A stretch of DNA of 64,000 nucleotides, taken from a virus (taxonomy: Duplodnaviria > Caudoviricetes). A model generated the notes under the pieces. That model was not told the DNA's origin. It made no database searches and worked only from the letters and a program-made list of their open reading frames with translations. Both the position numbers and the translations under genes were made by a program. Positions within the stretch are counted from its first letter, which is position 1. The number at the start of each line of letters is the position of its first letter. The stretch is taken from positions 154,773 through 218,772 of IMG/VR virus record IMGVR_UViG_3300037851_000671; one strand, given 5' to 3'. Positions 10,642 through 63,994 of the stretch are shown here, in pieces.

Positions 10642-10712
10642 GACAGCGAAAAAAAAGATCCGACCTTTTATTTGGTTTTGAATTCGAGATGAAAGATCGG
10701 TTGCGCGCTGTC
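10642..10712 (-). ncRNA. modular Y-RNA-like element E1 (minimal, no tRNA cargo)
   Basis: GACAGCG-CG..CCGATC-TTTCATC..GGTCGG..TTTTTTTT-CGCTGTC; ends complementary. Confidence 0.75.
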
Positions 10713-10715
10713 TAG

Positions 10716-10788
10716 TCGGGCGGGAGGGATTCGAACCCCCAACTATTCGCTTATGAGGCGACTTTTCTAACCGTTGAAATACCACCCG
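10716..10788 (-). tRNA. tRNA with CAT anticodon (elongator Met or Ile2)
   Basis: acceptor CGGGTGG/CCGCCCG, anticodon loop CTCATAA, T-loop TTCGAAT. Confidence 0.85.
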
Positions 10789-10792
10789 AAAC

Positions 10793-10909
10793 GGCAACGA
10801 AATTATGTAGACAATAGGCCGGCTTTTTACACCGTTTCCAAAGCCTCCGATGGATTCGAACCACCTAGCGCCAATTGATGATAGATGAAATGTCTACGAG
10901 CGCGTTGCC
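10793..10909 (-). ncRNA. modular Y-RNA-like element E2 (T-arm plus hairpin cargo)
   Basis: GGCAACG-CG..GTAGACA-TTTCATC..GGTGGTTCGAATCCATC..TGTCTAC..TTT-CGTTGCC. Confidence 0.75.
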
Positions 10910-10919
10910 AGAAATTAAA

Positions 10920-11054
10920 GAGTAACGAAAATTGCAGGACCACTGTTTTTTGTGCTACAATTACAACACATCCAGCCTTTCGACCGGAGCTGGGATTCGA
11001 ACCCAGACCTCTTAATTCTCAATTTAGGATGAATGATCCCACTGCGCGTTACTC
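10920..11054 (-). ncRNA. modular Y-RNA-like element E3 (circularly permuted tRNA cargo)
   Basis: GAGTAACG/CGTTACTC closing stem; T-arm CTGGG-TTCGAAT-CCCAG; acceptor TCCGGTC/GGCTGGA capped by GAAA; D-arm-like segment follows. Confidence 0.85.
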
Positions 11055-11212
11055 GGTGCTTCGTTCTATGTTTCCACAGAATGAAACGAGAGCGTAAAGT
11101 AAACCGAGAATATTGATAGATTCTCGATTGGGGTTTCTGCACGATGCCTGCTTTTTTGGAGGCAAACGCATATTCTCGGATTGTCTTTGAGACAGTTGAA
11201 AGGTGTTAGAGG

Positions 11213-11413
11213 GTGAGAGCTATGTTTCAGCAATGTACAGCAGTTTCAGATTGTTCTTCTGAAAAAGAGTTAGCCGATTTAGATTCCCACATTCAACAGC
11301 TTAACTTTCGCCTCAGACGTGTTTTGAAGAATGTCAAGACAGTCAGAGAATCTTGCAAAACCACTGCCCAAGTTATTGGTGAGATAAATGGCCACTTCGA
11401 AAACCACAAATGA
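11213..11413 (+). CDS. small coiled-coil hypothetical protein
   Basis: 66 aa ORF overlapping the start of 11388. Confidence 0.35.
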   Translation: MRAMFQQCTAVSDCSSEKELADLDSHIQQLNFRLRRVLKNVKTVRESCKTTAQVIGEINGHFENHK

Positions 11414-12122
11414 TCTTTTCTTAGAGAGACTTGCAGAGGGCTTGGATTCAACATCAAAGCTTACTCATGCTTTATTGTCTGAGATCAGAGATTCTGAAGC
11501 GGATTTTGCCTCCATCAAAACCGAGCTGTCAATACTAAGAGAGAACGTTAAAGGACTGTCAGAGATTGTCAGGGAAGGTAATGGAGCCACATCTATTCTC
11601 ACACGTATTGCGCTTATTGAGGCGCGAATACAGAACATTGAGAAGTGGATGGAAACCCACATCGATCTTCATCAGGAGGAAAACGCTGACGTGAGCAAGG
11701 CTCAGGAACAGCTGAAAGACCTCGATAAGAAGATCGCCGCGTTAACTTCAGTTGTCAATGAACTAAAATCTCACGCCGATGATATTGAGAAGAAGAGGCG
11801 CGAGAGTATAGACCGCGAGCTAGAGCTTCAGCACGAGGACAAGAAGAGCAAGATAGGGGTAGCTGCCGAAAGACAGCAGACCATTATCAAAGTCCTTGGT
11901 GCCCTGTTGTTGGCCGTGCTTGGCGCTGCTGGTGGCTATTTAGCGAATTCTTGTCATGGGACCGCCGGAGCGGCGCAGCCAAGGAGCGTTATTGTTGCCC
12001 CCTCGGCTGCCCCTATCCTAGCTCAACCGGCCGAGCCGATCAAGGAGAATCTGACTCCTCAACCGCCGTCACAGCCGCTTCTTCAGCCTTCGGTTTCTGC
12101 TGTTGCAAAACGAACTCGTTGA
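11388..12122 (+). CDS. coiled-coil protein with C-terminal transmembrane segment
   Basis: heptad-rich body; hydrophobic 'IIKVLGALLLAVLGAAGGYLA'. Confidence 0.55.
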   Translation: MATSKTTNDLFLERLAEGLDSTSKLTHALLSEIRDSEADFASIKTELSILRENVKGLSEIVREGNGATSILTRIALIEARIQNIEKWMETHIDLHQEENADVSKAQEQLKDLDKKIAALTSVVNELKSHADDIEKKRRESIDRELELQHEDKKSKIGVAAERQQTIIKVLGALLLAVLGAAGGYLANSCHGTAGAAQPRSVIVAPSAAPILAQPAEPIKENLTPQPPSQPLLQPSVSAVAKRTR

Positions 12123-13686
12123 GATCAAAATCCCTGATCGCCTTGACAATGTTGATACCAACATACTCAAGGTTCTTGAACAGTGCCGGTGTCATAGTCT
12201 GATACACGGTGACACTACGATCACCGAAATCAGCGCTGTGCCACTGGTAGTTGCTGGCATTGATAACCCAAAGCTCTGCCTCTGGGTTGACCTTCTTGCG
12301 ATACTCAGCCCAAGCCCTTGTCAAAGGAGTGCCAGCGTTCTGCTGCTCATCAGTGATCAAAACCATCAAATCAAGCTTACGCTTGCTGTTGGTTGCGTTC
12401 TCGATTGCCAGAGAAACCGTAGTTCCACCGGCAACCCTGAGAGCCAACAGATTCTTAACCTGATTCTTGCGATTCAGGCCAGTGATCCTTGGGCACATAC
12501 CGCTAGCGTAGCCGTAACGACCTCCGTGACCCTCCTCATACAAGGCGTTATCAAAAGTTGTGAACCAAAGGTTTGTAGCCTTTAGGAATGGCACTGCCAA
12601 CAGACCAGCAGTCTGAAGAGGCTCCCCGTTCATAGAACCAGAGATATCAACAGACACACCAACTCTCTTACCTTCAATGGTAGGCATTGGTACGTCCAAT
12701 GTTGCAACCATTGCATCGATAAGAATGTCCTTGACCTTTTCGTGCTTGGCGAAAATGTATGGCTTTGCAAAGTCAAGCGGAAGAGAGCGGCCATTCTGAA
12801 CCTCTCCCATCTTTAGCTTGAGCGCGGTCAGTCCATCCGTGGTGTCGAAGACATTGCGCTCTTCGAGAGAACGGATGTTGAGCAACAGAGCTGTCAAACC
12901 CATCTGAGTCATCGAGGCCATTGCAAGAGGACCCTTGAGTCCCGCAAAACCCTTAACAACATCCCATGGGATTTCATTTTCCAGCATCATATCAGCGATC
13001 TTCTTTGGATCACTGAGCTTCTTCATCATCTCAACAGCAACCTGCTTGGAACCGGTTGCCTCGGCCTTACGACCGTCCAAGACATACAGAATGACGTTTG
13101 CACGACCGTCTGTATAACGTGGGTGAACCAAACGAACGAGCTGATTCAAAGCAGTTGGATACTTGAGCGTGAAGTTTTCAAGCTTCTTATATCCCCACTT
13201 CTCCATTGCCGCGCGCACCCACTTCTGAGCACGCGAACCAAAACCACGACCCAACTGCTTGCTCTTGCACAGCTCCACGAACTGGATCAATTGACCAGGG
13301 TGGAATGTGCTAAGCAATGCAATAGCTGCCTGCTTATTTACAGGAGAATCCAAGAACTGCTCGTTTGCAGATCCGGCAATGGCAGCAAGAGCTACCTTAA
13401 CCATACCTTTCATATGGCTATTGCGGGCAAAGCAAGCCGCCTTGAGCAGGTACTCAGGGTCCAGCTTCGCGCGGTCAATGAGCAACGGCAGAGCTTCTTT
13501 TGCCGCGTCATCAACAGAGCGATAAAACTGGTTCTTAAGAATACCAGTCAAAAGAACACGAGCAACCGAATCTTCAGGAAGCTCATTCTTGGACAGATAT
13601 TCCGTCTTGGTCACAACCTTCTCAGGCTGACCCAACAGAGCCTTAACAAAAGAAGTGGACTTAACCTTGTTTGTTGTCTTATTCAT
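12040..13686 (-). CDS. rsr: Ro60/TROVE-domain RNA-binding protein with vWA domain
   Basis: 548 aa; TROVE-like helical N-part ('DPEYLLKAACFARN', 'LVRLVHP', 'IPWDVV', 'LTALLLNIRSL'), vWA MIDAS 'VDISGSM', 'GGT', 'LITDEQ'. Confidence 0.88.
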   Translation of the reverse strand: MNKTTNKVKSTSFVKALLGQPEKVVTKTEYLSKNELPEDSVARVLLTGILKNQFYRSVDDAAKEALPLLIDRAKLDPEYLLKAACFARNSHMKGMVKVALAAIAGSANEQFLDSPVNKQAAIALLSTFHPGQLIQFVELCKSKQLGRGFGSRAQKWVRAAMEKWGYKKLENFTLKYPTALNQLVRLVHPRYTDGRANVILYVLDGRKAEATGSKQVAVEMMKKLSDPKKIADMMLENEIPWDVVKGFAGLKGPLAMASMTQMGLTALLLNIRSLEERNVFDTTDGLTALKLKMGEVQNGRSLPLDFAKPYIFAKHEKVKDILIDAMVATLDVPMPTIEGKRVGVSVDISGSMNGEPLQTAGLLAVPFLKATNLWFTTFDNALYEEGHGGRYGYASGMCPRITGLNRKNQVKNLLALRVAGGTTVSLAIENATNSKRKLDLMVLITDEQQNAGTPLTRAWAEYRKKVNPEAELWVINASNYQWHSADFGDRSVTVYQTMTPALFKNLEYVGINIVKAIRDFDLNEFVLQQQKPKAEEAAVTAVEESDSP

Positions 13687-13706
13687 GGTGAATTTCTCCT
13701 ATAAAC

Positions 13707-13861
13707 GCGCCCTGATAAACAGAGCGAAATGAGCCGTTTGCAATCGCCCAACGGCGACGGATTGCTCGCAAACTCTGAAATGGTCACAGCCACTGGAATC
13801 AAACCAGTGTCGGTAAACCCTAGCCATTAACAATAGGTAAATCTATTGTTAAATCAGGCAC
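13707..13861 (-). ncRNA. structured RNA with T-arm-like hairpin immediately upstream of the ro60 gene
   Basis: closing helix CCTGAT/ATCAGG; 10-bp hairpin TTAACAATAG/CTATTGTTAA; ACTGG-TTTGATT-CCAGT; further stems. Confidence 0.6.
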
Positions 13862-13887
13862 TGTGTGTATATCGAATATGCAGTCGA

Positions 13888-14196
13888 TTACTTGCGTTTT
13901 TGACTCTTTGACTTGGACTGTTTAGCCCTTGCCTTCATTGAAGAGTCTTTATCTTTGGCCACATTTCCCTTCGGGGTAGCTCCCTTGGGAGGAGTGGGGC
14001 GCTGCATTTCTAATCTTGGAGTGTTATCCCCACCGAGCCCGAGCATAGCTGGAACCACGGACGGAGGCAAGCCATTTTCCTTCGCCTTGCGCCTTGCGGC
14101 CTTGCGCTTGTTTCTGGCTTGGCGGCGCTTGGTTTGCTGCGCCTCCAATTCAGCAGAAGCTTCACGTATCAACTGATCTACAAGTACGTTGCTCAT
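13888..14196 (-). CDS. basic hypothetical protein
   Basis: 102 aa K/R-rich ORF. Confidence 0.5.
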   Translation of the reverse strand: MSNVLVDQLIREASAELEAQQTKRRQARNKRKAARRKAKENGLPPSVVPAMLGLGGDNTPRLEMQRPTPPKGATPKGNVAKDKDSSMKARAKQSKSKSQKRK

Positions 14197-14236
14197 CTTA
14201 CCTCAACATTCAATTCTGTAGTATGCCCATAACGAT

Positions 14237-14899
14237 TCAAAAATCGTCCATCTGATCTGCGAATTTCGTAATTAGGTTTGACAGGGTATGAGGCTCACGT
14301 TTAATGAGTGCTACATATTCTGTTTTAGAGTTCACAAGCCAGTTCACAAGATCTACTGTGTTTATCGCATCAATCTCAGCAGAGTGCGCCCCAATCTTTG
14401 GAGTTATTCCAATACCAATCAGGAAGTTATTGAGACCAAACTTTACCTTTGGCTCTCCTTGAGCTGCTGCAATTTTTTCAGCAAGTCCATGTTTCTTGAC
14501 AGCTAATTGTGCGTACTGTTTTGTACACAACCAAAGGTCTGCCGGAAATTCTTTGTCACATGACTTCCAGGCCGCGTGACAGAACTTCCTATCAAAAGGT
14601 GCGTTGTGAGCGTAGATACATCTATGCGCTCTGGTTTTGCCATCCTCTTCAAAAAAGGCATCGATTATGTCAATGGCCTCTTTCAATGGGATGCCAACAT
14701 CAAGGTCATCGACAATTTTACCCTGTATTTCGAGGGCTTGTGGACTTGCCCGCTCAGGATTATCAACCTTTATGTCTACTGATAGCTGCTTTCCTGTAGA
14801 AAGTCTTATGACAGAGAATTGGTTAATTTGATGCCATTCACATTTTAGACCAGTTGTTTCAGTGTCTATAATGTAGTATTCTATATCATTCGCGGCCAT
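14237..14899 (-). CDS. DEDDh 3'-5' exonuclease (DnaQ-like)
   Basis: 'IIDTETTGL', 'AHNAPFD', 'HSAEIDA'. Confidence 0.85.
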   Translation of the reverse strand: MAANDIEYYIIDTETTGLKCEWHQINQFSVIRLSTGKQLSVDIKVDNPERASPQALEIQGKIVDDLDVGIPLKEAIDIIDAFFEEDGKTRAHRCIYAHNAPFDRKFCHAAWKSCDKEFPADLWLCTKQYAQLAVKKHGLAEKIAAAQGEPKVKFGLNNFLIGIGITPKIGAHSAEIDAINTVDLVNWLVNSKTEYVALIKREPHTLSNLITKFADQMDDF

Positions 14900-14950
14900 T
14901 GACTATCAACTTTCTAACTTTGAATTGGTTGTCAGACACAACCTCTCGAC

Positions 14951-15214
14951 TCAAAAATTCTTTACGAGCTTGATTAATGAAGATGGGAATTCTTTTACAG
15001 TTGTTTTTATCTTTCTCAACTTTGGCATTGAGAATTCTGGAGGCTGTCTAAGTTTGGCACTTCCTTGCTCTGATATCTTGAGGGCTTCTTTCTCATCCTC
15101 TGCAATAACATCCAAGGTAAGTCTAACAGGAACAATCCCCTCAACAACAACCGTGTATTGCTTTTTCTCTTTGGGTTTATCTTTTGGTTTCTCTTCTTTT
15201 TTCTTTGCGGCCAT
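14951..15214 (-). CDS. hypothetical protein
   Basis: 87 aa ORF in operon. Confidence 0.5.
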   Translation of the reverse strand: MAAKKKEEKPKDKPKEKKQYTVVVEGIVPVRLTLDVIAEDEKEALKISEQGSAKLRQPPEFSMPKLRKIKTTVKEFPSSLIKLVKNF

Positions 15215-15220
15215 GCAAGA

Positions 15221-15607: not shown

Positions 15608-16566
15608 TTTGCACCGTCCACCGAAGGAATAAACTGTTGGGCAAGGTCAGCAAAATACTCTGGTGTCTTGGCTGTGCTCATGTCCAACTTGAACTTTGGT
15701 TTTTCTATACTGTTGTAAATCTTTTCTCTGAACTCGTCTTGTTCACGTTTACCAAGAACAGGCAAATCAACATTACTAGGCCTATTTTGCTCAAGCTCAA
15801 ATATCATAGTTTGAAGAATTCTCATTTCTTGATAAGAGAATGTACGGGCACAGTAAGCCTGATCCAGCCATCCTTCAAACGCCATTGGAAAACAAATCTT
15901 AACCATGGCCGCCATCACATTGGCAAACTCACGTATCTCCCATTGCGCATGAGAATCGGCACGCAAACCCAACATGTGCAAAAGGTTATGAAGGTCCATC
16001 TTCCAATACCACTCAGTATAGGTCGAAAGAGGAAGATCAATCCTGGCAAGTTCCCTAGCTACTCCACCCTCTATAGCTAAAGAGTACATATCGGAAACTT
16101 CCTTGCGGACGTAAATTGAATCTTCATAGAAATCGTTTATGACATCGTTGCCCAACTCACCATCACGCCCTTGTTTATTACTCTTGCTTTGAGCTTTCAG
16201 ATTCTCTACCTGGGGTGTATAGAACTGAAGTGGCATTACAGAATAACGCCCAGAGTATTCATTCAAGCTTGCTGTTCTATGACGCACAAGCTGTCTTGCA
16301 ACAAAGATAGGAAGCCTCATGTGGAATTTCATTTCCACTTGCTCAAGAGGAGATGTGTGACGGTGTCTAATCAAGTATCTGATGAGTTTTTCATCATCAC
16401 TTGTTGTTTTGGTTCCGGCTCCGTAACTGCAACGAGCCGCCTGAGCAATGGCAGCATCATTGCCGCAATAATCCAGAAGAGCGCAAAAACCGTAATCTAA
16501 TACTGGAAAGTATTTGTTTAGTAAACTTTCTGCTCCTGGGGAGATTGGGCGCAAAGATTCACACAT
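15604..16566 (-). CDS. thyX: flavin-dependent thymidylate synthase
   Basis: 'RHRHTSPLE', 'ARQLVRHRTASLNEYSGRY', 'RELARIDLP', 'HAQWEIR'. Confidence 0.93.
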   Translation of the reverse strand: MCESLRPISPGAESLLNKYFPVLDYGFCALLDYCGNDAAIAQAARCSYGAGTKTTSDDEKLIRYLIRHRHTSPLEQVEMKFHMRLPIFVARQLVRHRTASLNEYSGRYSVMPLQFYTPQVENLKAQSKSNKQGRDGELGNDVINDFYEDSIYVRKEVSDMYSLAIEGGVARELARIDLPLSTYTEWYWKMDLHNLLHMLGLRADSHAQWEIREFANVMAAMVKICFPMAFEGWLDQAYCARTFSYQEMRILQTMIFELEQNRPSNVDLPVLGKREQDEFREKIYNSIEKPKFKLDMSTAKTPEYFADLAQQFIPSVDGAK

Positions 16567-17326
16567 GATTCCACGTCCTTCCATATTTGATATCAGAAAT
16601 TGTACTTGGTGATACGTTGTATTTTTTAGCTAGCATAGGGACCTTGTTTTGTATATCTTGTTTTATAGACAAGACAATGTCTTCGTTTAGTTTTGCGTTG
16701 TGGTGTTTTGAGCCATTTCGCGAGAATGGTTTTATGTGTAGCGTATCAGTGATATGAGTCCAAGAAACTCTTCCAATAATTGAGTGTACTACGGAAATGG
16801 TACACCCAATTTTTTTTGATATGTTTTTTGCGTTTTGCTCACAGTTCCACATATTAACAATTTCTACCACATCATCATCTTTAACAGAAGCGCAATGATG
16901 CTTTTCTCCAGTTTGTGATAGTCCAATTTTGTTTTTTGTAGCCTGTGATAATTTTCTACCAAGATATCGTTTAGATTGCAGATCTCTTCTTTTTTGTGTC
17001 CATGGTATACAATTTGGTGTGTTGGCTTTTTTGCTTGAGTTGAATCCGATTTTGTTATCGTATACTTTAAGGTGGTCTATCCAATACTGCTCCCTATCAA
17101 TTAGGTATTTTGGATCGTTTACCACCTCTACTTTCTCAAAAGTGAAAGAAGCCTCACCATATTTATTCCATGCTCTTTGAAGCCGTATGCAATGATGTTT
17201 GTTTTGTCGTAAACACCTTCTATGCTCATACCATCGTTTATACATGTTTTTAGAAGAGCCAATGTATATTTTACCATTGGATGAACATGTGATCCTGTAC
17301 ACCGCTACAACTCTTGAATTTGCCAT
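16559..17326 (-). mobile_element. GIY-YIG homing endonuclease with NUMOD-like C-terminal repeats
   Basis: 'VYRITCSSNGKIYIGSS', 'EQYWID', 'GEKHHCA', 'GSKHHNAKL'; start taken at MANSR. Confidence 0.85.
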
Positions 17327-17348
17327 ATACCTATGGCAAAATATTACA

Positions 17349-17471
17349 TCAATCAACAAGGCTTACAAATCCATAATCCAATACAGGGAAGTACAGACCA
17401 AACAAAGGCTCTGCAAGTTCGTTCTTACGGAATGTTTTAGCTCTAACATTTGCTATTTCTAACTCAGTCAT
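17349..17471 (-). pseudogene. 40-aa thyX N-terminal fragment
   Basis: translates MTELEIANVRAKTFRKNELAEPLFGLYFPVLDYGFVSLVD*, matching 'KYFPVLDYGFCALLD' of the intact ThyX. Confidence 0.78.
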
Positions 17472-20628: not shown

Positions 20629-21429
20629 TCACTTCCATTTATAAATCATACTATCTACTGGGCATTTCCCAATTACATCAAAAAAGTGTTGAGATTTGGA
20701 TTGTGAAATGCCTATGACATATCCAGTACCACTGTTTGTTTTCTTCAATGACATACCAAGCTCGAAAGACTCGTTGAACAGTGAGCAAAGCATTTCTTGT
20801 TCTGTTTTAGTAAACGATTGTGACGACATGGTTATTGTAATCTGTTTTGTTTTTGACTCCTTTCTCCTGTGAGATGACGATCCGTCATCAAGAAACCAAT
20901 GAAGAAGTGTGGTGGTTGTAACACACACGTTATTTGGAACAACCTTCTTACCAGCCGGATACCAATCTTTGTATAGAGCGTCAAGATTTTCATTGGCAAA
21001 AGATGATAGTTTGTGATATGTAAAAGACTTGCCATTGATGATGTTTGTGTCATCAACAATCCTGTCAGAAACATTGCAATCAAATAATTGATTAGCTACG
21101 AACTCAACATGATCGTAGTTTTTGTTTTTCTTGTAGAAATATGGCATGCTTAGCTGACTGCGCGGGTTAGACTTTTTCAACCCACCATCACCAAGCAAAC
21201 AGCCATGCAACACCTCAAGGTTCAGACGAAACCCATCTGAACGTTTGTGTGTCTGCGCTTTACTTCTATTTCTAATCGGTATGCTGAATCGGGCAAGCGC
21301 TTGACGAACGGAGTTACCAGTCGGAGCACCTATAGACCTTGCGATGTCTAGTGTGCTCCGACCATTGTCTAGGTACTCACGGACAAGCCAGTCCCGATCA
21401 TTTAAGCAAGCGTATTTTCTTGACTCCAT
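20629..21429 (-). mobile_element. LAGLIDADG homing endonuclease with N-terminal HTH
   Basis: two motifs 'LHGCLLGDGGL' and 'LLHWFLDDGSS'. Confidence 0.85.
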
Positions 21430-21458: not shown

Positions 21459-22985
21459 CTATACAATCTCAAGAAGGTAACGTATTCCAGACTGGTTGTT
21501 TGAATCATTGAAATCATATGTAATCATTTCATCATTCCTCAATGTCCCACCATTCATATCGGAGCCGGCTTTTCCGTACACTGAATGGTATCCGTTTGGA
21601 GGACATTTGAAAAACTGAGATCTGTTAGATTTGTGTTGCTTACCCATAGACACATCAAGCAGAAACATGAAACGAGATGAAATTGAACGGTTTCCACCTG
21701 TCCAATAACCTCCGTCGCAATAGTTTAGAGATTTTGTTGACTGCCAAGCAAAATATTTTCCATCACCAAACAAAGATCCAGTGTATACAGCTCCAGTGGG
21801 ACGAATCATCAGACCGCGCCTGGTGATACCAACCAGATTGGCGCTCCTGGTACCGTGCCAGCAAAGCCAGACATTGGCATCGTTGTAGAGCTTGACCAGT
21901 GGCTTATCCAAATCTGGACGCTTCTCAGGAACCCAAAGCTTGCTCTTGTCATGAGAAAGACTCTCGGTTTCGCTGGCAAACGTATGCCTCCCGTTTTCCT
22001 TACCAATACGCTCTGTGGTTTTGATGAAGGCGGCTTCTTTGGCATCCTTGCGCTTCATTGACCAGATGCGAGCTACTTTATTGGCGTCGTATCCATGGCC
22101 ACGAACCTTGGTGTCATTGAAATAGCCAGACAAGAACTTGAACAGGTCGGAAGTGGGATCGACAGTATCAAAGTCACAGTTGAGACTGAGATACTTGTCA
22201 TCAGAGCTGGAGTCCGCCTTGAGCACAGCGTTGACTTGCTTGGCGTCAAGTAGGGTATCCAGGTCCCCTTCTTTGGCAACGATCTTGTCCAGAGTATCCA
22301 GCAACAAATGACTCATCTGACCACGCGCGCCGGCCCCTAGATTGTGGGGAATGGTAGCGTAGAAAGTATTGGTCAGTGCAAGGATCTCTTTTGTATCGTC
22401 AGAAGACAACCTTTTGTTGCCATTGACAATTACCTTGGCTTTATCCAGGGCTTCACGTCCCTTATCAATCTGCTCGTTTGAGAGCTGACCCAAAGGGCAT
22501 TTTAGAGTCTGTGCAACGAAATTGGCCTGAGCACCGAAGAAGATATCTACAATGCGGCGCTGACCTTCGTTGAGTGAGCTTTTGGGTGCTGCATCCAAGT
22601 GTTCGGCATTCTTGAATACCACTGGCTTGGTAATCTGCTTTGCACCATCGCTACCAATAGCACGCTGGGCAACATCAATTCTCGTGTACCCTTTCTTTTC
22701 CTTGCTCTTGATGATCTTGTCCATTTCTTTCTTGGCTTCATCAAAACTGGAAAAACAGCGATACTCACGAGCTTGGACCTTACCAGTGGGGCCATACATC
22801 GTGAAGAGCTGAGCACGCCCACCGTTCTTTTCTACCTGCAACTCGGCATGATAGAACTTATTACTAGTACCTTTGGTGTTTGCCTTCTCGCCGGTCATGT
22901 CGAAGAAATTGAGTTCAACAACCTCTTTGACATCATATGAACCCTCATGAAGGATTGGGGTGTTCTGGCACTTTGCGGCAGCCAT
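21459..22985 (-). CDS. poly(ADP-ribose) polymerase-like protein (WGR + regulatory + catalytic domains)
   Basis: WGR-like 'NKFYHAELQ..LFTMYGPTG', 'CPLGQLSNEQIDKG', 'FYATIPH', catalytic 'WHGT', 'FGDGKYFA..KSLNY', 'NDEMITY'. Confidence 0.88.
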   Translation of the reverse strand: MAAAKCQNTPILHEGSYDVKEVVELNFFDMTGEKANTKGTSNKFYHAELQVEKNGGRAQLFTMYGPTGKVQAREYRCFSSFDEAKKEMDKIIKSKEKKGYTRIDVAQRAIGSDGAKQITKPVVFKNAEHLDAAPKSSLNEGQRRIVDIFFGAQANFVAQTLKCPLGQLSNEQIDKGREALDKAKVIVNGNKRLSSDDTKEILALTNTFYATIPHNLGAGARGQMSHLLLDTLDKIVAKEGDLDTLLDAKQVNAVLKADSSSDDKYLSLNCDFDTVDPTSDLFKFLSGYFNDTKVRGHGYDANKVARIWSMKRKDAKEAAFIKTTERIGKENGRHTFASETESLSHDKSKLWVPEKRPDLDKPLVKLYNDANVWLCWHGTRSANLVGITRRGLMIRPTGAVYTGSLFGDGKYFAWQSTKSLNYCDGGYWTGGNRSISSRFMFLLDVSMGKQHKSNRSQFFKCPPNGYHSVYGKAGSDMNGGTLRNDEMITYDFNDSNNQSGIRYLLEIV

Positions 22986-25088: not shown

Positions 25089-25857
25089 CCAATGGCTTGG
25101 TGGTTGTTTCTTCCGATTTATCTCTTATCCATTTTATTGATTTTGAACTTCCAAAATCAACACCAATTTTAAATCTCTCAACCAATAGACCATTAAGCAT
25201 TGTCTCGATATCTGGTGATGATCTGGTTATCATAGGCACCATGCCACTTGAAACAATATCAGCAACGAAACTAGTTTCACCAGTTGTCAATCTCTCGTTG
25301 CTTTTCAGGACAAGGTCATCGAAAACAGGATCGGGAGAAGAGTAACATAGCTGTGTATTGTTTGTCTCTGTGTATGGTGTAACCAGATCGTATCCATCTT
25401 CCAATCCAATGAATGAATAGACAAAATACCTATCAGCTTTAGGAAGTTTGCTAAGTAGTGTTTTTTGAGAGCGAAAGATTGGCTGGCTAACGCTTTTCAA
25501 CAGAAACAATGGACTACAGTATATCAAAGGCTTGCCAAGTATAGCCGCCATATTTGCTGAGAAGAACTCAACATCACTGATGACAATGTCTGGATCCCAA
25601 TCTATGATGTCGTCAATTATGAACTTTGACAGTTTCTCTGATACGGATGGTGAAAAGAGTCCAAAGTTTTTTCTGAAAAACCCACCAGTCTTAACGTCAA
25701 AGACAGGATCTAGCGCCCAATCTATCCACTGGATATATTTGGAGCGCCTATAGAAAGCCAGTATCTTGACATCGTGTTGGTGTTTGATGTGTGGAAGAAA
25801 TCTCCCACCAAAGATATCAGACCCAGGTCTATCATTGATCCCTAGAAGTATCTTCAT
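25036..25857 (-). CDS. glycosyltransferase-like protein (GT-B, divergent)
   Basis: 'WDPDIVISDVEFFSANMAAILGKPLI', 'GETSFVAD'. Confidence 0.45.
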   Translation of the reverse strand: MKILLGINDRPGSDIFGGRFLPHIKHQHDVKILAFYRRSKYIQWIDWALDPVFDVKTGGFFRKNFGLFSPSVSEKLSKFIIDDIIDWDPDIVISDVEFFSANMAAILGKPLIYCSPLFLLKSVSQPIFRSQKTLLSKLPKADRYFVYSFIGLEDGYDLVTPYTETNNTQLCYSSPDPVFDDLVLKSNERLTTGETSFVADIVSSGMVPMITRSSPDIETMLNGLLVERFKIGVDFGSSKSIKWIRDKSEETTTKPLVVEKGKLLHEYLEEILS

Positions 25858-28527: not shown

Positions 28528-28613
28528 CGGAAGAAGAAGGAGTCAAACCTTCAAGACCTTTTGGGTTCGCCGGAGTTCGAAGCCGGTGCCATCATCTATT
28601 GGCTTGTTCTTCC
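28528..28613 (-). tRNA. tRNA-Ser(CGA)
   Basis: loop TTCGAAC, long variable arm, 31-39 mismatch. Confidence 0.8.
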
Positions 28614-55079: not shown

Positions 55080-55204
55080 AGCAACGAAAGAATCGAAGAC
55101 CTTGCTTGTCGGCTGCTCTACCACTGAGCTATGTGGCGGGAAACCACAGCAGGACTCGAACCTGCGACCCGCTGATTAGGATGAAGGATCCTCTACGCGT
55201 TGCT
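55080..55204 (-). ncRNA. modular Y-RNA-like element E4 (circularly permuted tRNA cargo)
   Basis: AGCAACG/CGTTGCT; GATC-CTTCATC; T-arm GCAGG-TTCGAGT-CCTGC; acceptor TGTGG/CCACA closed by a loop; D-arm GCTC-AGTGGTA-GAGC; GGTC. Confidence 0.9.
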
Positions 55205-55207: not shown

Positions 55208-55279
55208 TCGGGGTGGCCAGGATCGAACTGGCGACTTCTAGTTCCCAAAACTAGCGGACTACCGCTGTCCTACACCCCG
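55208..55279 (-). tRNA. tRNA-Pro(TGG)
   Basis: loop TTTGGGA, C1-G72, A73. Confidence 0.9.
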
Positions 55280-55789
55280 TAAATCTAAATCATGTCCAGC
55301 ATGTAATGCTGCGTGACAGTTTTTGCAAAGAAGAACACATGTTTCAATTTCAGTTTTAACGTTTTCCCAACACCAACCTCTTGAATATTTGAAATTAGGA
55401 TCTTTTTTGGAAGGATCTAGATGATGTATATCTAAAGCTGCTTGATATTTATCATATCCACACGCTTTACATTTACCTCCAAGAAACTCCCTGGCTCTAT
55501 TTTTATTTTCTTGGCCCAGTTTAGTGGTATATTTGTTGTGACACCTACCACAAACTGTTGTTTTGTTACCATAGAATTTTTCTGGATTTGTTTCTCCACA
55601 ACTACATTTACGAGGGCGTGGTATTTTTGAGTCCTTGTTTTCTATTTTCCCATGTGGCCCACGTAACAAAACAAGTTTTTCTTTTTGTACCCAGTATCTA
55701 ATTGTTGTTTGTGAACATTCTAGTTCTTTTGCAAGTTCATTTGTACTATATCCATTTTCAACTAGTTTTTTTAGTTTCTCGATATCCAT
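55259..55789 (-). mobile_element. HNH homing endonuclease with N-terminal HTH
   Basis: 'GGKCKACGY..ALDIHH..CVLLCKNCHAALH'; stop codon lies in the tRNA-Pro D-loop. Confidence 0.85.
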
Positions 55790-55808: not shown

Positions 55809-55932
55809 AACGAACGAAAGTTTTGAAGACCAACGCCCTCCGAAAGTCATGTTTCCTTGGGCCTAAATGATGCCCGCCAATTTAGGACATCGCACTGTCA
55901 TATTGATGAAAGATCTTCGTGACGCGTTCGTT
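55809..55932 (-). ncRNA. modular Y-RNA-like element E5 (non-tRNA hairpin cargo)
   Basis: AACGAACG/CGTTCGTT; GAAGATC-TTTCATC..GGTCTTC; internal CCTAAAT/ATTTAGG stem. Confidence 0.8.
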
Positions 55933-56470: not shown

Positions 56471-56622
56471 AAGGAACGAAAAAGCGAAAGACCAGTTTTT
56501 TCGCGCTCTACCAGACTGAGCTATATGCTGATGTTGGGCTTTATGAGCCTTGTCAGCATAGTTGGATTCGGACCAACGACCTCGATCTCCTAAAGATGAA
56601 TGATCTTTCTAACGCGTTCCTT
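56471..56622 (-). ncRNA. modular Y-RNA-like element E6 (circularly permuted tRNA cargo)
   Basis: AAGGAACG/CGTTCCTT; GATC-ATTCATC; T-arm GTTGG-TCCGAAT-CCAAC; acceptor TATGCTGA/TCAGCATA with inserted hairpin; D-arm GCTC-AGTCTGGTA-GAGC. Confidence 0.9.
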
Positions 56623-56703: not shown

Positions 56704-56771
56704 ACTAACGAAAATAGCGATGACCTTGGTTTTCAATGTTCGGTTGATGAAGGATCATCTTGCGCGTTAGT
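56704..56771 (-). ncRNA. modular Y-RNA-like element E7 (minimal)
   Basis: ACTAACG-CG..GATGATC-CTTCATC-20 nt-GGTCATC..TTTT-CGTTAGT. Confidence 0.8.
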
Positions 56772-58107: not shown

Positions 58108-58139
58108 ACCAACAGATATACCGAGAGAATCGTAGAGTT

Positions 58140-58289
58140 AGATAACGAAAAGGGCTCAGACGAAGTTTTTTCCAGCGTCCAGCCGCCGCATGTTGCCCGG
58201 TTTTACCCAGGTGGTGCGGCGCAGGGAAATCGAATCCCTGTCGTTTGAATTATCGGTTCAAGATGAATCGTCCAAAAAGCGCGTTATCT
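58140..58289 (-). ncRNA. modular Y-RNA-like element E8 (permuted acceptor with encoded ACCA)
   Basis: AGATAACG/CGTTATCT; GGACG-ATTCATC..CGTCT; T-arm AGGGA-TTCGATT-TCCCT; GCGCCGC-ACCA-insert-GCGGCG. Confidence 0.82.
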
Positions 58290-58327
58290 GGCGATGCTGT
58301 AAACACCCAAGCTTACAGCGTCATTTG

Positions 58328-58651: not shown

Positions 58652-58657
58652 AATTAC

Positions 58658-58993: not shown

Positions 58994-59189
58994 AATGTCA
59001 CCTATCTTTCTTGAATGCTTTTACCTTGGCCCCTCCAGCTTTAACTTCTCGACGCCAAGCCGCCAGTCTTCGCTCAAGTTTTTTGAAATACTCGTCTGCA
59101 TGCTTTCTGGTTCTTGCGCTATCGTATGCTTCTATCCAAATCCAGTTATGGTTCATTCATCTCCATTAGATGTGATATATACGCGTTTT

Positions 59190-60194: not shown

Positions 60195-60263
60195 CCCCAG
60201 CGGGATTCGAACCCGCATTGAAGCGCTGAGAACGCTCTCGCCTAACCATTAGCGGATGGGGCC
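60192..60263 (-). tRNA. tRNA-Glu(CTC)
   Basis: loop TTCTCAG. Confidence 0.88.
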
Positions 60264-60269
60264 AAAATC

Positions 60270-60360
60270 GTGATGACATTTGCCAGCGCTGGTCATTTGT
60301 CATCACTAAACCTGGTTGTGGATTCGAACCACTATGCGCGCCTGCCTGCCTGGCTACAGA
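60270..60360 (-). other. tRNA-like fragment (D-arm + T-arm, no anticodon arm) followed by a long hairpin
   Basis: TAGCC-AGGCAGGCA-GGC, GTGG-TTCGAAT-CCAC, then GTGATGACA/TGTCATCAC. Confidence 0.45.
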
Positions 60361-60364
60361 TCTG

Positions 60365-60446
60365 TGCAGATAGTGGGTCTCGAACCCACATGTCCTTAAG
60401 GACTCTACGCTCTGAACGTAGTGCGTTTGCTTTTCGCCATATCTGC
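60365..60446 (-). tRNA. tRNA-Leu(CAG)
   Basis: loop TTCAGAG, long variable arm. Confidence 0.88.
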
Positions 60447-60636
60447 AAAAACCGGGGCTGCTCTATCCATTGAGCTAATCAACTTGTATTCAAACATTTC
60501 TTCGAACGGCACCTTCGCAAAGTGATATCCCTTTGCACTCCAGGCTTTAGCTTTCGCGTAACGTTGAGAGGAAATTGCCTTTGCAGGACTGTCATACATG
60601 TTGATATTGGATTCGAACCAATAACCAACCCCTTAG
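60447..60636 (-). ncRNA. circularly permuted tRNA-like RNA P1 with ~125-nt insert at the acceptor end
   Basis: GGGGT-TGGTT-ATTGG-TTCGAAT-CCAAT-ATCAAC-[insert]-GTTGAT-TA-GCTC..GAGC-A-GCCCC. Confidence 0.75.
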
Positions 60637-60680
60637 GGTGACCAGTTGGTACCGCCCCAACTACGACAGAGCCACAATCT
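60637..60680 (-). tRNA. 3' half of split tRNA-His(GTG)
   Basis: AGATTGTGGC-TCTG, T-arm GTTGG-GGCGGTA-CCAAC, acceptor strand TGGTCAC, C73. Confidence 0.75.
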
Positions 60681-61155
60681 GCCCGCTCACTTCTTGCGTT
60701 TGGTCACATTTAAACTGACGTGCTAGTTTATGTACATGGAACCTTGTGATCCCATAAACCTTACTGATTGATACTGCACTTTCTCCATTTTTGTACCTTT
60801 CAACAATTTCTGTTTTCACATTTGGTTTTAGTGTTTTTCTTACAGGGTTGTAACTATTGATAGCTAGATTTATTTGCTCTTTTCTTCTTAGTCCCATGTG
60901 AGGTTGAAGCTCTTTCATAAGAACCACAGCCCTACCTCCTTTAAGTGCTGTGGCATATGGTGTTTTGTGATGTGCCTTTTGCTTTTTACACTTGCGATAA
61001 GTAGAGCCAAAAAGCATAGCAGCTTTTGCAACAACATCTTCATCAGTCATCATCAATGTAATAGCTGGGCAATTTGGCCTGCTTGGTGGTGATTTTAGAA
61101 AAGAACCCTCACCTTCTAAAAGCCCTGCAAGCCAAATCAAATCGTATTCTTTCAT
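60661..61155 (-). mobile_element. LAGLIDADG homing endonuclease inserted in tRNA-His
   Basis: 'IWLAGLLEGEGSF', C-terminal HTH; last codons read through the tRNA-His anticodon arm. Confidence 0.88.
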
Positions 61156-61195
61156 GAATAATCATATATCAAGCTCAACGACTTATTACAACTGG

Positions 61196-61233
61196 GCCAC
61201 AATCTAGTGCCTTAACCATTAGGCTACGATCAC
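61196..61233 (-). tRNA. 5' half of split tRNA-His(GTG)
   Basis: GTGATCG-TA-GCCT-AATGGTTA-AGGC-A-CTAGA-TTGTGGC; acceptor strand pairs 7/7 (with GU) with 60638-60644. Confidence 0.8.
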
Positions 61234-61235
61234 AG

Positions 61236-61317
61236 TGCTCATGAAGGGATTCGAACCCCCAAGCCCGAAGGCGGCAGTATTTGAAGCTGCTGTGTATACC
61301 AGTTCCACCACATGAGC
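61236..61317 (-). tRNA. tRNA-Leu(CAA)
   Basis: Leu-type D-arm and variable arm; loop TTCAAAT; C31-A39 mismatch. Confidence 0.8.
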
Positions 61318-61336
61318 GTAAGTTTCTGTATCTTTG

Positions 61337-61417
61337 TAGCACCGAAGGGATTTGAACCCCCACGCCCGAAGGCATCAGCTCCTAAGGCTGACGTGTCTGC
61401 CGTTCCACCACGGTGCC
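61337..61417 (-). tRNA. tRNA-Leu(TAG)
   Basis: loop CTTAGGA, variable arm. Confidence 0.9.
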
Positions 61418-61459
61418 ATATTTGTAATTTTGCACATATGCATATTTGCAGATTTACAT

Positions 61460-62401
61460 ATGAACCTAGAGAAGTATATCGTGTTACACGGCAGCCCTAT
61501 CAAGCTGCCCAAGCCTCATGCAGATTTTGTTGACTTTTACTACAACAACATGATGCATGATAAGAAGTTCGGAGTTATCCATATGCGAAAGGCCAGACAG
61601 GTTGGTTTTACCAGTTTGAGTCATGGGCTTTCGTTAGCTTTGGCCATGGAAGAGGTTGTTAGGGTTTATCACCTTCATCCTACTATGGCTATGGCAGCAC
61701 AGTCAGCTCAAAAAATAAACGATATGATTCTTGATGCCCCAAGAGGAATGACCAAGAAGCGCAATGGCCTTCTAAAATCTGTCATTGAAGAAAAGTTGAA
61801 ATGGGGTCCTCAATGCGATACCAAAACCAGAAAAGAGTTTGAGAATGGAAGCTCAATCCTAACAGAGTCAACTGGGAACAATGCCTGCCGTTTGAGGGGA
61901 GGAAGCTGTGACATTTCTTTTTTCCATGAGTCACAGCGCATGGAGCCAGAAGCTATGAGGAACGCAAGTCATCTTTCATCCCATTCACAATTCGGTGTGC
62001 TTGGTCTTGGTGTTCAGACTTATATGTTCACACCACAAGAGGAAGATGATTATTCCGATCATATGTGGAAAGATTCAGACCAGAGGAGGTTCCACTACAG
62101 GTGCGAGAACTGCTCCTGTATGTTCCCAATCATGCAAAGCAATTTCCGTGAGATTTGGTTGTATGGATTTACCATCCGTTGTCCAGAATGTCACAGAGAG
62201 CAGGACAAGAGAAACGCCATGAAACGCGGAGAGTGGATAGCTACAGCAACCGAGTCACATGTTGCTGGATTCCATATGGACCAGTCTACCATGGAGTTTT
62301 TTAGCCGTGAGTCAATTGATGCGTGCTATAATGACAGAACCATGACGGAAAGGAATATCGCTAATGAAGTATGGGGAGAGTCTTTTCCGAAAGAACAGTA
62401 A
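61460..62401 (+). CDS. terminase large subunit (GpA-like) ATPase-domain protein, nuclease domain absent
   Basis: 'MRKARQVGFTS', 'RLRGGSCDISFFHE', Zn ribbon 'CENC..CPEC', 'VAGFHM'; start at MNLEKY. Confidence 0.65.
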   Translation: MNLEKYIVLHGSPIKLPKPHADFVDFYYNNMMHDKKFGVIHMRKARQVGFTSLSHGLSLALAMEEVVRVYHLHPTMAMAAQSAQKINDMILDAPRGMTKKRNGLLKSVIEEKLKWGPQCDTKTRKEFENGSSILTESTGNNACRLRGGSCDISFFHESQRMEPEAMRNASHLSSHSQFGVLGLGVQTYMFTPQEEDDYSDHMWKDSDQRRFHYRCENCSCMFPIMQSNFREIWLYGFTIRCPECHREQDKRNAMKRGEWIATATESHVAGFHMDQSTMEFFSRESIDACYNDRTMTERNIANEVWGESFPKEQ

Positions 62402-62402
62402 T

Positions 62403-62650
62403 AAAACGGGGACTGCTCTACCAATTGAGCTAATCCAACTTTGTTCGATAACTAACGCCTCTTCAAACTCGCACCGTGTGGAAATCGCGTTTTTCCGTGA
62501 CAGGCTTTAGCAACAAGCCATGCAAGACATCCCCTCGCGAGGGAGCTAACACGGACTAACAGTTGCGTAAGAGTTGATAGGAGACAGTCTTATGAAGCAC
62601 TGTTACTTATCGAGTCGAATGCCGGACTCGAACCGGCAACCTTCCCCTCA
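62403..62650 (-). ncRNA. circularly permuted tRNA-like RNA P2 with ~175-nt structured insert at the acceptor end
   Basis: GGGGA-AGGTT-GCCGG-TTCGAGT-CCGGC-ATTCGAC-[insert]-GTTGGAT-TA-GCTC-AATTGGTA-GAGC-AG-TCCCC. Confidence 0.8.
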
Positions 62651-62651
62651 G

Positions 62652-62724
62652 TCCTGATAGCAGAAGTCGAATCTGCAACATCCAGCTTATGATGCTAGCG
62701 CTCTACCAATTGAGCTATATCAGG
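62652..62724 (-). tRNA. tRNA with CAT anticodon (elongator Met or Ile2)
   Basis: acceptor CCTGATA/TATCAGG, loop ATCATAA. Confidence 0.82.
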
Positions 62725-63085
62725 GAATATCATTTTTAGCTTCTTTCAACGCCTCTCTTCTATTCTTGACCTCTTGTCTTTCGTGTTGTACCCTTTTCCA
62801 CTTGAGCGCTCCATGGCCTCTACGATGTTTCAAGTCTCGTCTTACCAAGAATGGAACGTTACCATGTTTTTCAATGTGCATGTTCCAATAGCGTGTTAGA
62901 CGTTTCTTGATACGTGGTATCTTGTTTTCTCTTATGTGTGGCATAGAGAGAAAATCAGACATCAATTCTTCAAGAGTGTTGTATGTATCCTTCAAATAGT
63001 ACATAGTGGCCTCTAAAAAGTAAGTAGAAGTGATGCCATTCCAATTTGGCGGAGATGTCTCTTCGTAAAGAGCAATCGGCATCAT
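62720..63085 (-). CDS. basic hypothetical protein
   Basis: 121 aa ORF in the tRNA array. Confidence 0.45.
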   Translation of the reverse strand: MMPIALYEETSPPNWNGITSTYFLEATMYYLKDTYNTLEELMSDFLSMPHIRENKIPRIKKRLTRYWNMHIEKHGNVPFLVRRDLKHRRGHGALKWKRVQHERQEVKNRREALKEAKNDIP

Positions 63086-63089
63086 ACAT

Positions 63090-63166
63090 TGGTGACCCCA
63101 GTCGGATTCGAACCGACAATAAGCTGCCTGAAAAACAGCCGTCCTGAACCGTTAGACGATGGGGCC
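63090..63166 (-). tRNA. tRNA-Glu(TTC)
   Basis: loop TTTTCAG, encoded CCA. Confidence 0.9.
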
Positions 63167-63175
63167 ATTGAAAAG

Positions 63176-63271
63176 AGGATAACGAAAATTGGTTGACCTT
63201 TTGCCTTACGGCACATTACGTTTCGGTTTTTATTACTGATGTAGATGAAAGATCAAACCTGCGCGTTATCT
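63176..63271 (-). ncRNA. modular Y-RNA-like element E9 (short non-tRNA cargo)
   Basis: AAGATAACG/CGTTATCCT; GGTTTGATC-TTTCATC..GGTCAACC. Confidence 0.8.
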
Positions 63272-63350
63272 TGGAAGCGGGTCTTGGATTTGAACCAAGG
63301 AAACTAGGCTTATGAGACCCAGGAGTTAGGCCAGACTACTCTAACCCGCG
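63272..63350 (-). tRNA. tRNA-fMet(CAT)-like
   Basis: C1-U72 mismatch, loop CTCATAA, encoded CCA. Confidence 0.8.
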
Positions 63351-63359
63351 ATAGTGAAT

Positions 63360-63517
63360 AAGCAACGAAAAGATTTGAGACCCTGCCTTTCGGCTCTGTT
63401 GTGTATACCAATTCCACCATACCGGCGTTTCCACGTTTCCACCGATAGCGGGACTCGAACCCGCAAACGTATTAGGTGACAGTTTTACAAGATGAAAGAT
63501 CTCGGATCGCGTTGCTT
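63360..63517 (-). ncRNA. modular Y-RNA-like element E10 (permuted tRNA-Leu-like cargo)
   Basis: AAGCAACG/CGTTGCTT; GAGATC-TTTCATC; long variable region, T-arm GCGGG-TTCGAGT-CCCGC, Leu-type D-arm GGTGGAATTGGTATACAC. Confidence 0.88.
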
Positions 63518-63519
63518 TG

Positions 63520-63607
63520 TGCCGCCGACAGGATTCGAACCTGCATGAACGTTTTGTGTTCCTCACGCTCTCAACGTGATATGTATACCAAATTCCATCA
63601 CAGCGGC
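63520..63607 (-). tRNA. tRNA-Leu(GAG)
   Basis: loop TTGAGAG, long variable arm. Confidence 0.9.
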
Positions 63608-63609
63608 AA

Positions 63610-63791
63610 AGGATAACGAAAGATTGTCAGACGGGTTTTTCAACACCAGTCTGCCCATTGTTTTCAGAAGAATTGAGACTTGTTTTTACCGGCACAACCA
63701 GCATCTCAATTTGGCGGGCAGCTAAGGAATCGAACCTTAATGTCTATACGTTGGAAATATTAGATGAACCATCTAACTATGCGCGTTATCT
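63610..63791 (-). ncRNA. modular Y-RNA-like element E11 (permuted acceptor with encoded GCCA)
   Basis: AGATAACG/CGTTATCC; AGATGG-TTCATC..CCGTCT; T-arm TAAGG-TTCGATT-CCTTA; GCTGCCC-GCCA-insert-GGGCAG. Confidence 0.82.
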
Positions 63792-63869
63792 TGGTTGCGG
63801 AGAATTGGATTTGAACCAATGACCTTCGGGTTATGGGCCCGACGAGCTACCTGACTGCTCTACCCCGCA
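63792..63869 (-). tRNA. tRNA-fMet(CAT) with C33
   Basis: anticodon stem TCGGG/CCCGA, loop CCCATAA, encoded CCA. Confidence 0.85.
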
Positions 63870-63875
63870 ATAATT

Positions 63876-63994
63876 AGCAACGAAAGGAGCGAGACCCTAC
63901 ATGCCCACATGGGCGATTCCCCAGTGAAAAGAACCCGAAGGTTCGGTGGGGAATTAAGTTTCGAGCTTAGATGAAAGATCCCTAACGCGTTGCT
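63876..63994 (-). ncRNA. modular Y-RNA-like element E12 (multi-hairpin non-tRNA cargo)
   Basis: AGCAACG/CGTTGCT; GGGATC-TTTCATC..GGTCTC; internal TTCCCCA/TGGGGAA and GAACC-TTCG-GGTTC stems. Confidence 0.82.

Follow-up and report, generated by a model that had tools for sequence, protein, structure and literature searches.

Twelve small structured RNA genes and a phage gene for the ring protein Ro60/Rsr were characterized in a window of 64 kb, which forms the final part of the 218,772-bp IMG/VR virus record IMGVR_UViG_3300037851_000671 (here G000). The twelve elements are probably Y RNA genes of the YrlA/YrlB type, in which a shared closing module (the handle) encloses a part of its own in each copy (the cargo) and is the predicted docking site for the Ro60/Rsr of the phage itself. 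The best reading, supported by the evidence below, was an expanded YrlA/YrlB-type family that is specific to a clade and has a handle of new sequence. Systems of this kind are known; what is new is the sequence of the handle, the number of copies, the embedding in tRNA arrays and the breadth of cargos. The record is linear, was obtained from a freshwater metagenome and has a CheckV completeness of 51%. The window, a fragment of a huge phage, has 31 tRNA genes, every one of them on the minus strand.

A preliminary description of the window had listed twelve minus-strand elements, and all of them were found, with starts within 0-2 nt of those given and with the quoted stem pairs correct. The regular-expression scan of the window for the 5' signature returned 12 copies on the minus strand and none on the plus strand. 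With a stricter motif (ACGCG-N3-14-TTCATC), 11 matches were obtained against 0.18 ± 0.41 expected from 100 shuffles, and the twelfth copy was missed by this motif as it has GCGCG in place of ACGCG. After extension to the complementary 3' end, the lengths of the twelve elements ranged from 68 to 179 nt. A covariance model built from the 12 window copies (R1) recovered the same 12 elements from the whole record, with one weak hairpin besides. This thirteenth match, at 25261-25302 (19.8 bits), was a plain hairpin without inner helix or UUCAUC and was attributed to chance, and a match at position 14394 of the record was rejected for the absence of the closing stem.

The same frame was displayed by all 12 folds. 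The outer stem of 7-8 bp ends in AACG/CGUU and is separated from the inner helix by an asymmetric internal loop (5' CG-N, 3' N-UUU). The inner helix ends in GAUC/GGUC in the window copies, with GACA/UGUC, GACG/CGUC and GAUG/CGUC as variants; in the handle consensus these ends read GAYC/GRUC, and an unpaired WUUCAUC stands 3' of GAYC, followed by the cargo. Pairing was evaluated in the window copies and, at family level, in 51 copies from five phage records. In the outer stem and inner helix, 94.7% of the cells were paired in the window copies compared with 76.6% in shuffles, and 96.8% compared with 76.7% in the 51 copies. Compensatory double changes were detected in 11 of 13 pairs, covariation extended over outer stem and inner helix alike, and the covariation score was 0.578, compared with 0.171 after shuffling and ≤0.10 with a slid register. 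The covariation of the two helices, first noticed in the window, was therefore confirmed on the larger set. The unpaired ACGCG, UUCAUC and UUUCGU were invariant or nearly so among the 51 copies. Such invariance alongside covarying helices is expected of a protein-binding module, the role predicted for the handle.

The minus strand is the RNA strand. The third pair of the inner helix was most often U-G (34 of 51 copies), a pair that the opposite strand would turn into a C-A mismatch, and the T-arm and D-arm sequences of the cargos were canonical in the minus orientation only, so the opposite-strand reading was ruled out. A bulge-helix-bulge splicing motif was also considered and rejected, since the sizes of loop and helix do not fit 3-4-3. 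Scans for sigma-70 promoters and terminators gave results no better than shuffles, and a search for sequencing runs that contain this DNA turned up no RNA run. The pairing data also bear on the view that the elements are copies of a dispersed, selfish repeat, or else tRNA pseudogenes in decay, without function at the RNA level. The copies are many and some of them lie beside homing-endonuclease genes (such as HNH, 55259-55789). However, their sequences diverge while pairing is kept by compensatory changes, the G-U pairs are strand-specific, the family is kept across Ro60 lineages differing by up to 47% in protein sequence, and no target-site duplications or terminal repeats were evident. A selfish or decayed origin is thus hardly credible.

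Judged by profile matches and a modelled fold, the open reading frame (ORF) at 12040-13686 (minus strand, 548 aa) encodes a genuine but divergent Ro60/Rsr orthologue, with a HEAT-repeat ring and a C-terminal vWA domain carrying the DxSxS of the MIDAS (metal ion-dependent adhesion site). The protein matched PF25045 (vWA_Ro60) with E 5e-7, above the family cut-off, phrog_850 with E 9e-15, and the NCBIfam model Rsr (NF041674) over residues 42-488 with E 2.5e-8 and a score of 32.8 bits, below the equivalog cut-off of 900. No match to Pfam TROVE (PF05731) was found at E≤0.01. An AlphaFold model was made with 19 homologues (predicted local distance difference test score 79.7), and the top 13 Foldseek matches of this model in the PDB were all Ro60/Rsr. 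The best of them was D. radiodurans Rsr (2nvo; E 2e-13, template modelling score 0.70/0.76, 526 columns), followed by the Ro60 of Thermus phage phiLo and by Xenopus and human Ro60. In the alignment of homologues, MIDAS residues D347, S349 and S351 as well as T422 and D446 were invariant. The gene had earlier been called TROVE/Ro60, which agreed with the fold and the intact MIDAS. This divergent subfamily comprised at least 93 metagenomic clusters with 42-73% identity, and contigs of 390-459 kb carried several of them. When the Ro60 locus was compared with deposited phages by Megablast, no match was returned, and the closest deposited Ro-like proteins were only about 22-25% identical. In the leader of the gene (13707-13865, minus strand), a tRNA-like piece with an acceptor-like stem ending in ACCA and a T-arm was observed (fold z -3.0); it was not conserved, as nothing similar was present upstream of Ro60 in 11 related loci.

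The RNA family and the Ro60 gene were linked in the window and in related phages. The three elements E3, E2 and E1 begin 986 nt downstream of the Ro60 ORF on the same (minus) strand, and the nine other copies lie 41-50 kb upstream of it among tRNA genes, which matched the earlier statement that three copies lie about 1 kb downstream of Ro60 and the rest more than 40 kb away. Elements were counted in five other records: 11 in G001 (169 kb, no Ro60), 13 in G002 (208 kb, Ro60 with 72% identity), 13 in G003 (336 kb, 71%), 3 in G004 (459 kb, 60%) and none in G005 (209 kb, 72%). G000, G002, G003 and G004 each have 2-3 elements on the Ro60 strand, 0.7-2.2 kb downstream of the gene. Seven further loci (L146-L152) were sampled by the Ro60 protein alone and then searched with R1. 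One element was present in each of L147 (Ro60 with 70% identity) and L148 (65%), 2-3 in L149 (58%) and two in each of L150 (53%) and L151 (56%), all of them 0.8-3.4 kb downstream of the Ro60 gene and on its strand; none was present in L146 (72%) or in the short locus L152 (42%). Overall, 9 of 12 Ro60 loci, with identities down to 53%, had 1-3 copies less than 4 kb downstream on the same strand. Candidate YrlA genes have been defined as sharing the strand of Ro60 and lying no more than about 4 kb from it (PMC4201824), and the Ro60-adjacent copies do both.

The reverse question, whether the RNA family occurs apart from Ro60, was approached from the motif. In IMG/VR, the 5' motif was found in 109 stretches, of which 81 were searched with R1 as loci. 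Full elements were found in four related huge-phage contigs only, besides a weak match in L076 (25.4 bits). This match, regarded as chance, spans the start of a gene and is missing the GGUC strand, and its record contains no Ro60. In 80 bacterial stretches with the 5' motif, R1 detected no full element. G001, labelled complete, appeared to carry the family without Ro60. Its start is collinear with 139.8-175 kb of G002, and the end of the Ro60-bearing G005 with 118-129.6 kb; both records come from the same metagenome and map to adjacent, non-overlapping segments of G002. Synteny therefore argues, short of proof, against G001 as a Ro60-less carrier, and G001 and G005 most likely represent neighbouring pieces of a single genome. 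Among the records and loci examined, no confirmed Ro60-less carrier was found, in line with the proposed co-occurrence with TROVE genes. The preliminary description had further ascribed the expansion to this phage; the expanded set is real, but it belongs to a phage clade, with 3-13 copies in each of the related contigs that carry the family.

A gene for a DEDD exonuclease of the RNase_T family (14237-14899, minus strand; PF00929, E 4.6e-9) neighbours Ro60. In the window, as in 7 of 8 loci sampled from relatives, an RNase_T gene lies upstream of Ro60 at a distance of 0.2-2.8 kb. By analogy with the Ro60-Y RNA-PNPase machine, this exonuclease is a candidate effector partner of Ro60. In five relatives, a nucleotidyltransferase of the CCA-adding type (PolyA_pol) was observed near the exonuclease-Ro60 pair on the opposite strand. 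The sole PolyA_pol match in the G000 record was at positions 900-1283 of that record, in which no RtcB was present.

The cargos were examined for tRNA-like parts. A T-loop motif was found in 7 of the 12 window copies and in 33 of all 51. When the cargos were compared by BLAST with the tRNAs of the phage itself, the T segment (tRNA positions ~45-79) stood 5' of the D segment (positions 5-27) in the elements starting at 55080, 56471 and 63360. These three are circularly permuted tRNA mimics, with the order of parts that defines YrlA. Three window copies (68-93 nt) were minimal and YrlB-like, and the cargos starting at 63876 and 55809 had non-tRNA folds. Non-tRNA cargos had been announced for the family; they exist in these two copies, but the set is less exotic overall, given the seven T-arms and the three cargos of permuted-tRNA YrlA type. 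Distinct cargos were common to several genomes. The Ro60-adjacent copies in G002, G004, L150 and L151 were nearly bare handles, with a cargo of only 6-18 nt in G002 and G004, and the handle itself therefore appears to be the functional unit.

The unit near Ro60 consists, in order, of E3, E2, tRNA-Met, E1 and a strong hairpin bearing a U-run; all elements of the window are encoded on the minus strand. E3 (10920-11054, 135 nt; R1 94.4 bits), the first RNA of the unit downstream of Ro60, has a T-arm, a GAAA-capped hairpin and another hairpin. E2 (10792-10910, 119 nt; R1 72.2 bits) has the inner helix GACA/UGUC and a cargo of a T-arm and a hairpin; G001, G002 and G003 have related copies, and the T-arm covaried in an alignment of 7 sequences. 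Next comes tRNA-Met(CAU) (10715-10788), with gaps of 3 nt to E2 and 2 nt to E1. E1 (10642-10712, 71 nt; R1 50.8 bits) is a minimal YrlB-like copy with the outer stem GACAGCG/CGCUGUC, and the terminator-like hairpin with its U-run (~10585-10619) lies 22 nt 3' of it (-25.1 kcal/mol, z -4.15).

In the first distant group, the 125-nt element at 55080-55204 (R1 92.9 bits) has a permuted tRNA-like cargo of T-arm, acceptor-like hairpin and D-arm, and sits between tRNA-Pro (2-nt gap) and tRNA-Lys (5-nt gap). The cargo of the 124-nt element at 55809-55932 (R1 66 bits) is structured without a recognizable tRNA arm; this copy is flanked by an ORF of unknown type and the HNH endonuclease ORF. The 152-nt element at 56471-56622 (R1 89.6 bits), whose YrlA-type cargo comprises T-arm, long acceptor-like hairpin and D-arm, begins 1-2 nt after tRNA-Pro. 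The minimal 68-nt element at 56704-56771 (R1 58.6 bits) sits between tRNA-Gln (0-nt gap) and tRNA-Pro (4-nt gap). The 150-nt element at 58140-58289 (GACG/CGUC; R1 92.3 bits), with a T-arm-like hairpin and a 6-bp acceptor-like stem, is the sole window copy without a tRNA within 1 kb and has a counterpart in G003. An ACCA was noted at 58212-58215 of this element, after the 3' strand of the acceptor-like stem; the encoded CCA is not conserved, the G003 counterpart (L043:611-814) having GCGG there.

Four elements are located at the end of the record, where the order is element, tRNA-Met, element, tRNA-Leu, element, tRNA-Met, element, tRNA-Glu. The 93-nt element at 63178-63270 (R1 60.6 bits) has a short hairpin cargo and lies between tRNA-Met and tRNA-Glu. 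The 158-nt element at 63360-63517 (R1 101.2 bits) has a full permuted tRNA-like cargo, whose D-arm is of the long-arm (Leu) type with 95% identity over 20 nt to tRNA-Leu(CAA). The 179-nt element at 63612-63790 (GAUG/CGUC; R1 86.1 bits) has a T-arm and long hairpins, with a counterpart in G003. The 119-nt element at 63876-63994 (R1 69.2 bits) has a non-tRNA cargo of two hairpins, and a near-identical cargo was found in G003. The array may go on past this copy, as it lies 6 nt from the record end.

Two further permuted tRNA-like RNAs, without a handle, were observed on the minus strand at 62403-62650 and 60447-60636, each beginning right after a tRNA. Both run from the anticodon-stem 3' strand through T-arm, acceptor 3' strand and an insert of ~125-175 nt to the acceptor 5' strand, D-arm, anticodon-stem 5' strand and a T-run. 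The sequence GCTAAAGCCTG is common to the inserts of both.

The elements were closely associated with tRNA genes. A same-strand tRNA or sister element was present within 15 nt of 38 of the 51 copies, with gaps of mostly 0-4 nt upstream and 2-11 nt downstream, and 11-13 elements accompanied 30-39 tRNAs per genome (3 elements and 14 tRNAs in G004). Most copies would thus be co-transcribed with tRNAs, and this adjacency points to the enzymes of tRNA processing as the means of excision. Maturation of the upstream tRNA at its 3' end would release the 5' end of the element; on the other side, RNase P would cleave the downstream tRNA, and trimming would then yield the 3' end of the element.

The same 38 copies abutting tRNA genes could also suggest that the elements are spacers or processing signals of polycistronic tRNA transcripts, that is, leader-trailer duplexes for steering nucleases or keeping precursors stable, without function of their own after processing. 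The handle encloses a near-complete, non-permuted tRNA body in two relatives, at L043:2210-2323 (G003) and at L138:14541-14656 (= G002:192541-192656), as this view would allow. In contrast, bare handles beside Ro60 in G002 and G004 have no adjacent tRNA, the window copies starting at 58140 and 55809 have none within 500 nt, and the invariant unpaired nucleotides together with cargos conserved across genomes argue for stable, functional RNAs. The spacer explanation is accordingly quite improbable. As for the two whole-tRNA copies themselves, ARAGORN called a tRNA-Ile(UAU) at L043:2232-2306 inside the G003 element, and a tRNA-model match of 41.2 bits was obtained at G002:192567-192636 inside the G002 element. 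In both, an acceptor-like stem appears to arise from pairing between the handle's UUUCA and an A-rich tract on the 3' side.

The elements were compared with known Y RNA families. At gathering thresholds, Rfam reported tRNAs only, and in the element regions Y_RNA and the Dictyostelium Class I RNA had no match at E≤10. The YrlA model RF02553 matched the element 55080-55204 with its tRNA-like core (at 55112-55172) with 42.5 bits and aligned in full length to 56482-56610 of the element 56471-56622 with 37.8 bits. In Gordonia phage Neville, RF02553 gave 44.1 bits directly upstream of an annotated Ro-like gene; in CcrColossus, it gave a cluster of 42.3, 30.5 and 29.9 bits, and in Bacillus phage G 36.2 bits. 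CcrColossus and phage G have been cited as YrlA carriers (PMC12135203). These comparison phages were likewise all below the RF02553 cut-off, and the scores of the window, being in their range, are typical of phage YrlA. In Felix O1, R1 found no handle, only partial cargo matches of ≤16.6 bits. In the RF02553 alignment, the inner helix of the window elements corresponded to the first helix of the model, with GAUC-AUUCAUC at the position of the motif GNCGAAN0-1G; the outer stem and internal loop of the handle lie outside the model. The position equivalent to the motif read GAYC-WUUCAUC in all 51 copies. The family is not a full Rfam match, and the earlier remark that its signature is unlike the GGUCCGA-type stem was upheld.

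Several of these results weigh against the assignment to YrlA/YrlB-type Y RNAs. No copy reached the gathering cut-off of RF02553 (69 bits), and this model, owing to its tRNA-like core, also gives sub-threshold matches in ordinary genomes. The handle lacks the published motifs for Ro binding, GNCGAAN0-1G of bacteria and GGUCCGA of metazoa. Nine of the 12 window copies, at more than 40 kb from Ro60, are linked to it by the shared handle alone. R1 found no element near Ro60 at G005 (L021), at L146 and at the short L152. At the expected element site, L021 (12212-12988) and L146 (12435-12928) have an ORF-free gap; three isolated ATTTCGTTA strings in L021 are possibly remnants of 3' handle halves.

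The missing motifs and the three Ro60 loci without adjacent elements leave room for another owner of the handle, such as the DEDD exonuclease, the enzyme of the CCA-adding type or a phage factor as yet unknown, in which case proximity to Ro60 would only mark an RNA-metabolism cluster. The recurrent RNase_T gene beside Ro60 and the PolyA_pol/CCA-adding gene near it in five relatives are consistent with this. Even with different surrounding genes, however, the RNAs always lay directly downstream of Ro60 on the same strand: L149 has an inserted two-component cassette, L150 and L151 have other neighbours, and the RNA position was kept. Moreover, a stem-loop-stem with a permuted tRNA is the established architecture of Ro60 partners (PMC4201824). 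Binding of the handle by another protein is therefore unlikely, and docking to Ro60 is preferred.

Like the elements described here, the YrlA and YrlB RNAs of bacteria and phages, bound by Rsr, are encoded on the Ro60 strand no more than 4 kb from the gene, their ends pair around an internal loop, and one class has a permuted tRNA domain (T-arm, closed acceptor stem, D-arm) while another is a short hairpin (PMC4201824). The present family differs from them in the handle (AACGCG...GAYC-WUUCAUC...GRUC...UUUCGUU rather than GNCGAAN0-1G, with an extra conserved outer stem and loop), in copy number (11-13 copies per genome compared with 1-4) and in location, most copies being in tRNA arrays 20-75 kb from Ro60. 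It also differs in the diversity of D-arm types, including the Leu-type long arm, in the non-tRNA cargos and in the whole tRNA enclosed in relatives. Thermus phage phiLo (PMC12135203; PDB 9KOP, 9L5Y) likewise combines a phage Ro60 ring with adjacent stem-bulge-stem RNAs. The fold of the window protein matched 9kop and 9l5y in Foldseek, and the sequence similarity of the two Ro60 proteins was marginal (E 0.8). The phiLo study proposed hijacking of the host PNPase and described two RNAs (Yrl1/Yrl2) that have a CGAA bulge motif and lie upstream of the gene (PMC12135203), whereas here 12 RNAs with another motif lie downstream of Ro60 and in tRNA arrays. In metazoan Y RNAs, of which Ro60 binds a conserved bulged helix (PDB 1YVP), the terminal stem formed by the RNA ends likewise holds the protein site (here predicted) and a variable distal module serves other functions; in contrast to them, the handle has no similarity to the GGUCCGA helix, and transcription would be linked to tRNAs here but proceeds from individual Pol III genes there.

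Studied bacteria have at least two and at most about four Y RNAs per species. The published phage systems comprise one to three such RNAs (PMC4201824, PMC12135203, PMC12282133), and in the literature no report of an expanded, tRNA-embedded Y-RNA family was found. The repertoire described here is by far the largest Y-RNA-like one that our searches turned up for any phage or bacterium.

Other features of the window were recorded besides. An extra weak tRNA (28528-28613, minus strand; Rfam 31.3 bits), absent from the ARAGORN calls, lies beside tRNA-Ser. Homing-endonuclease ORFs of the GIY-YIG (16559-17359), LAGLIDADG (20629-21429) and HNH types are spread over the nucleotide-metabolism and tRNA regions. 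A PARP-like protein with WGR, PARP_reg and PARP domains is encoded at 21459-22985. On the plus strand, opposite the minus-strand tRNA array, an ORF at 61352-62401 matched the terminase large-subunit gpA ATPase (E 5.5e-8); its long TTG-start frame overlaps tRNA-Leu (61336-61417).

From these features we infer that Ro60 binds the RNAs, how they are processed, that they act as tethers and which protein is the effector. If the Ro60-Y RNA-PNPase machine is taken as the model, the cargo could gate Ro60 or tether it to tRNA-recognizing or exonucleolytic partners, and the host PNPase or the phage DEDD exonuclease encoded beside Ro60 would be candidates for the tethered partner. A bolder and rather doubtful reading is that the handle is an unrecognized Ro60 recognition code, a universal adaptor by which a dozen or more cargos, among them mimics of several tRNA classes, non-tRNA folds and, in relatives, entire tRNAs, are loaded onto Ro60 throughout a clade of huge phages, each RNA steering Ro60, with or without the exonuclease, to a different tRNA-binding factor or hiding it from that factor. 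If this were true, the purpose could be quality control of the 30-40 tRNAs of the phage or the decoying of host defences that target tRNA.

To our knowledge, specification of Ro60 function by the variable module is known for essentially one case, the tethering of PNPase. One constant, covarying handle with 11-13 cargos per genome is a natural library for the use of partner RNAs by Ro60. A divergent Ro60 and a conserved neighbouring exonuclease accompany this library, and the model of gating or tethering becomes directly testable. The handle is a new candidate Ro60-binding sequence, and the elements point to a tRNA-punctuated route of Y-RNA biogenesis. These results also suggested that the Ro60 systems of huge phages are tied to the upkeep of large tRNA sets.

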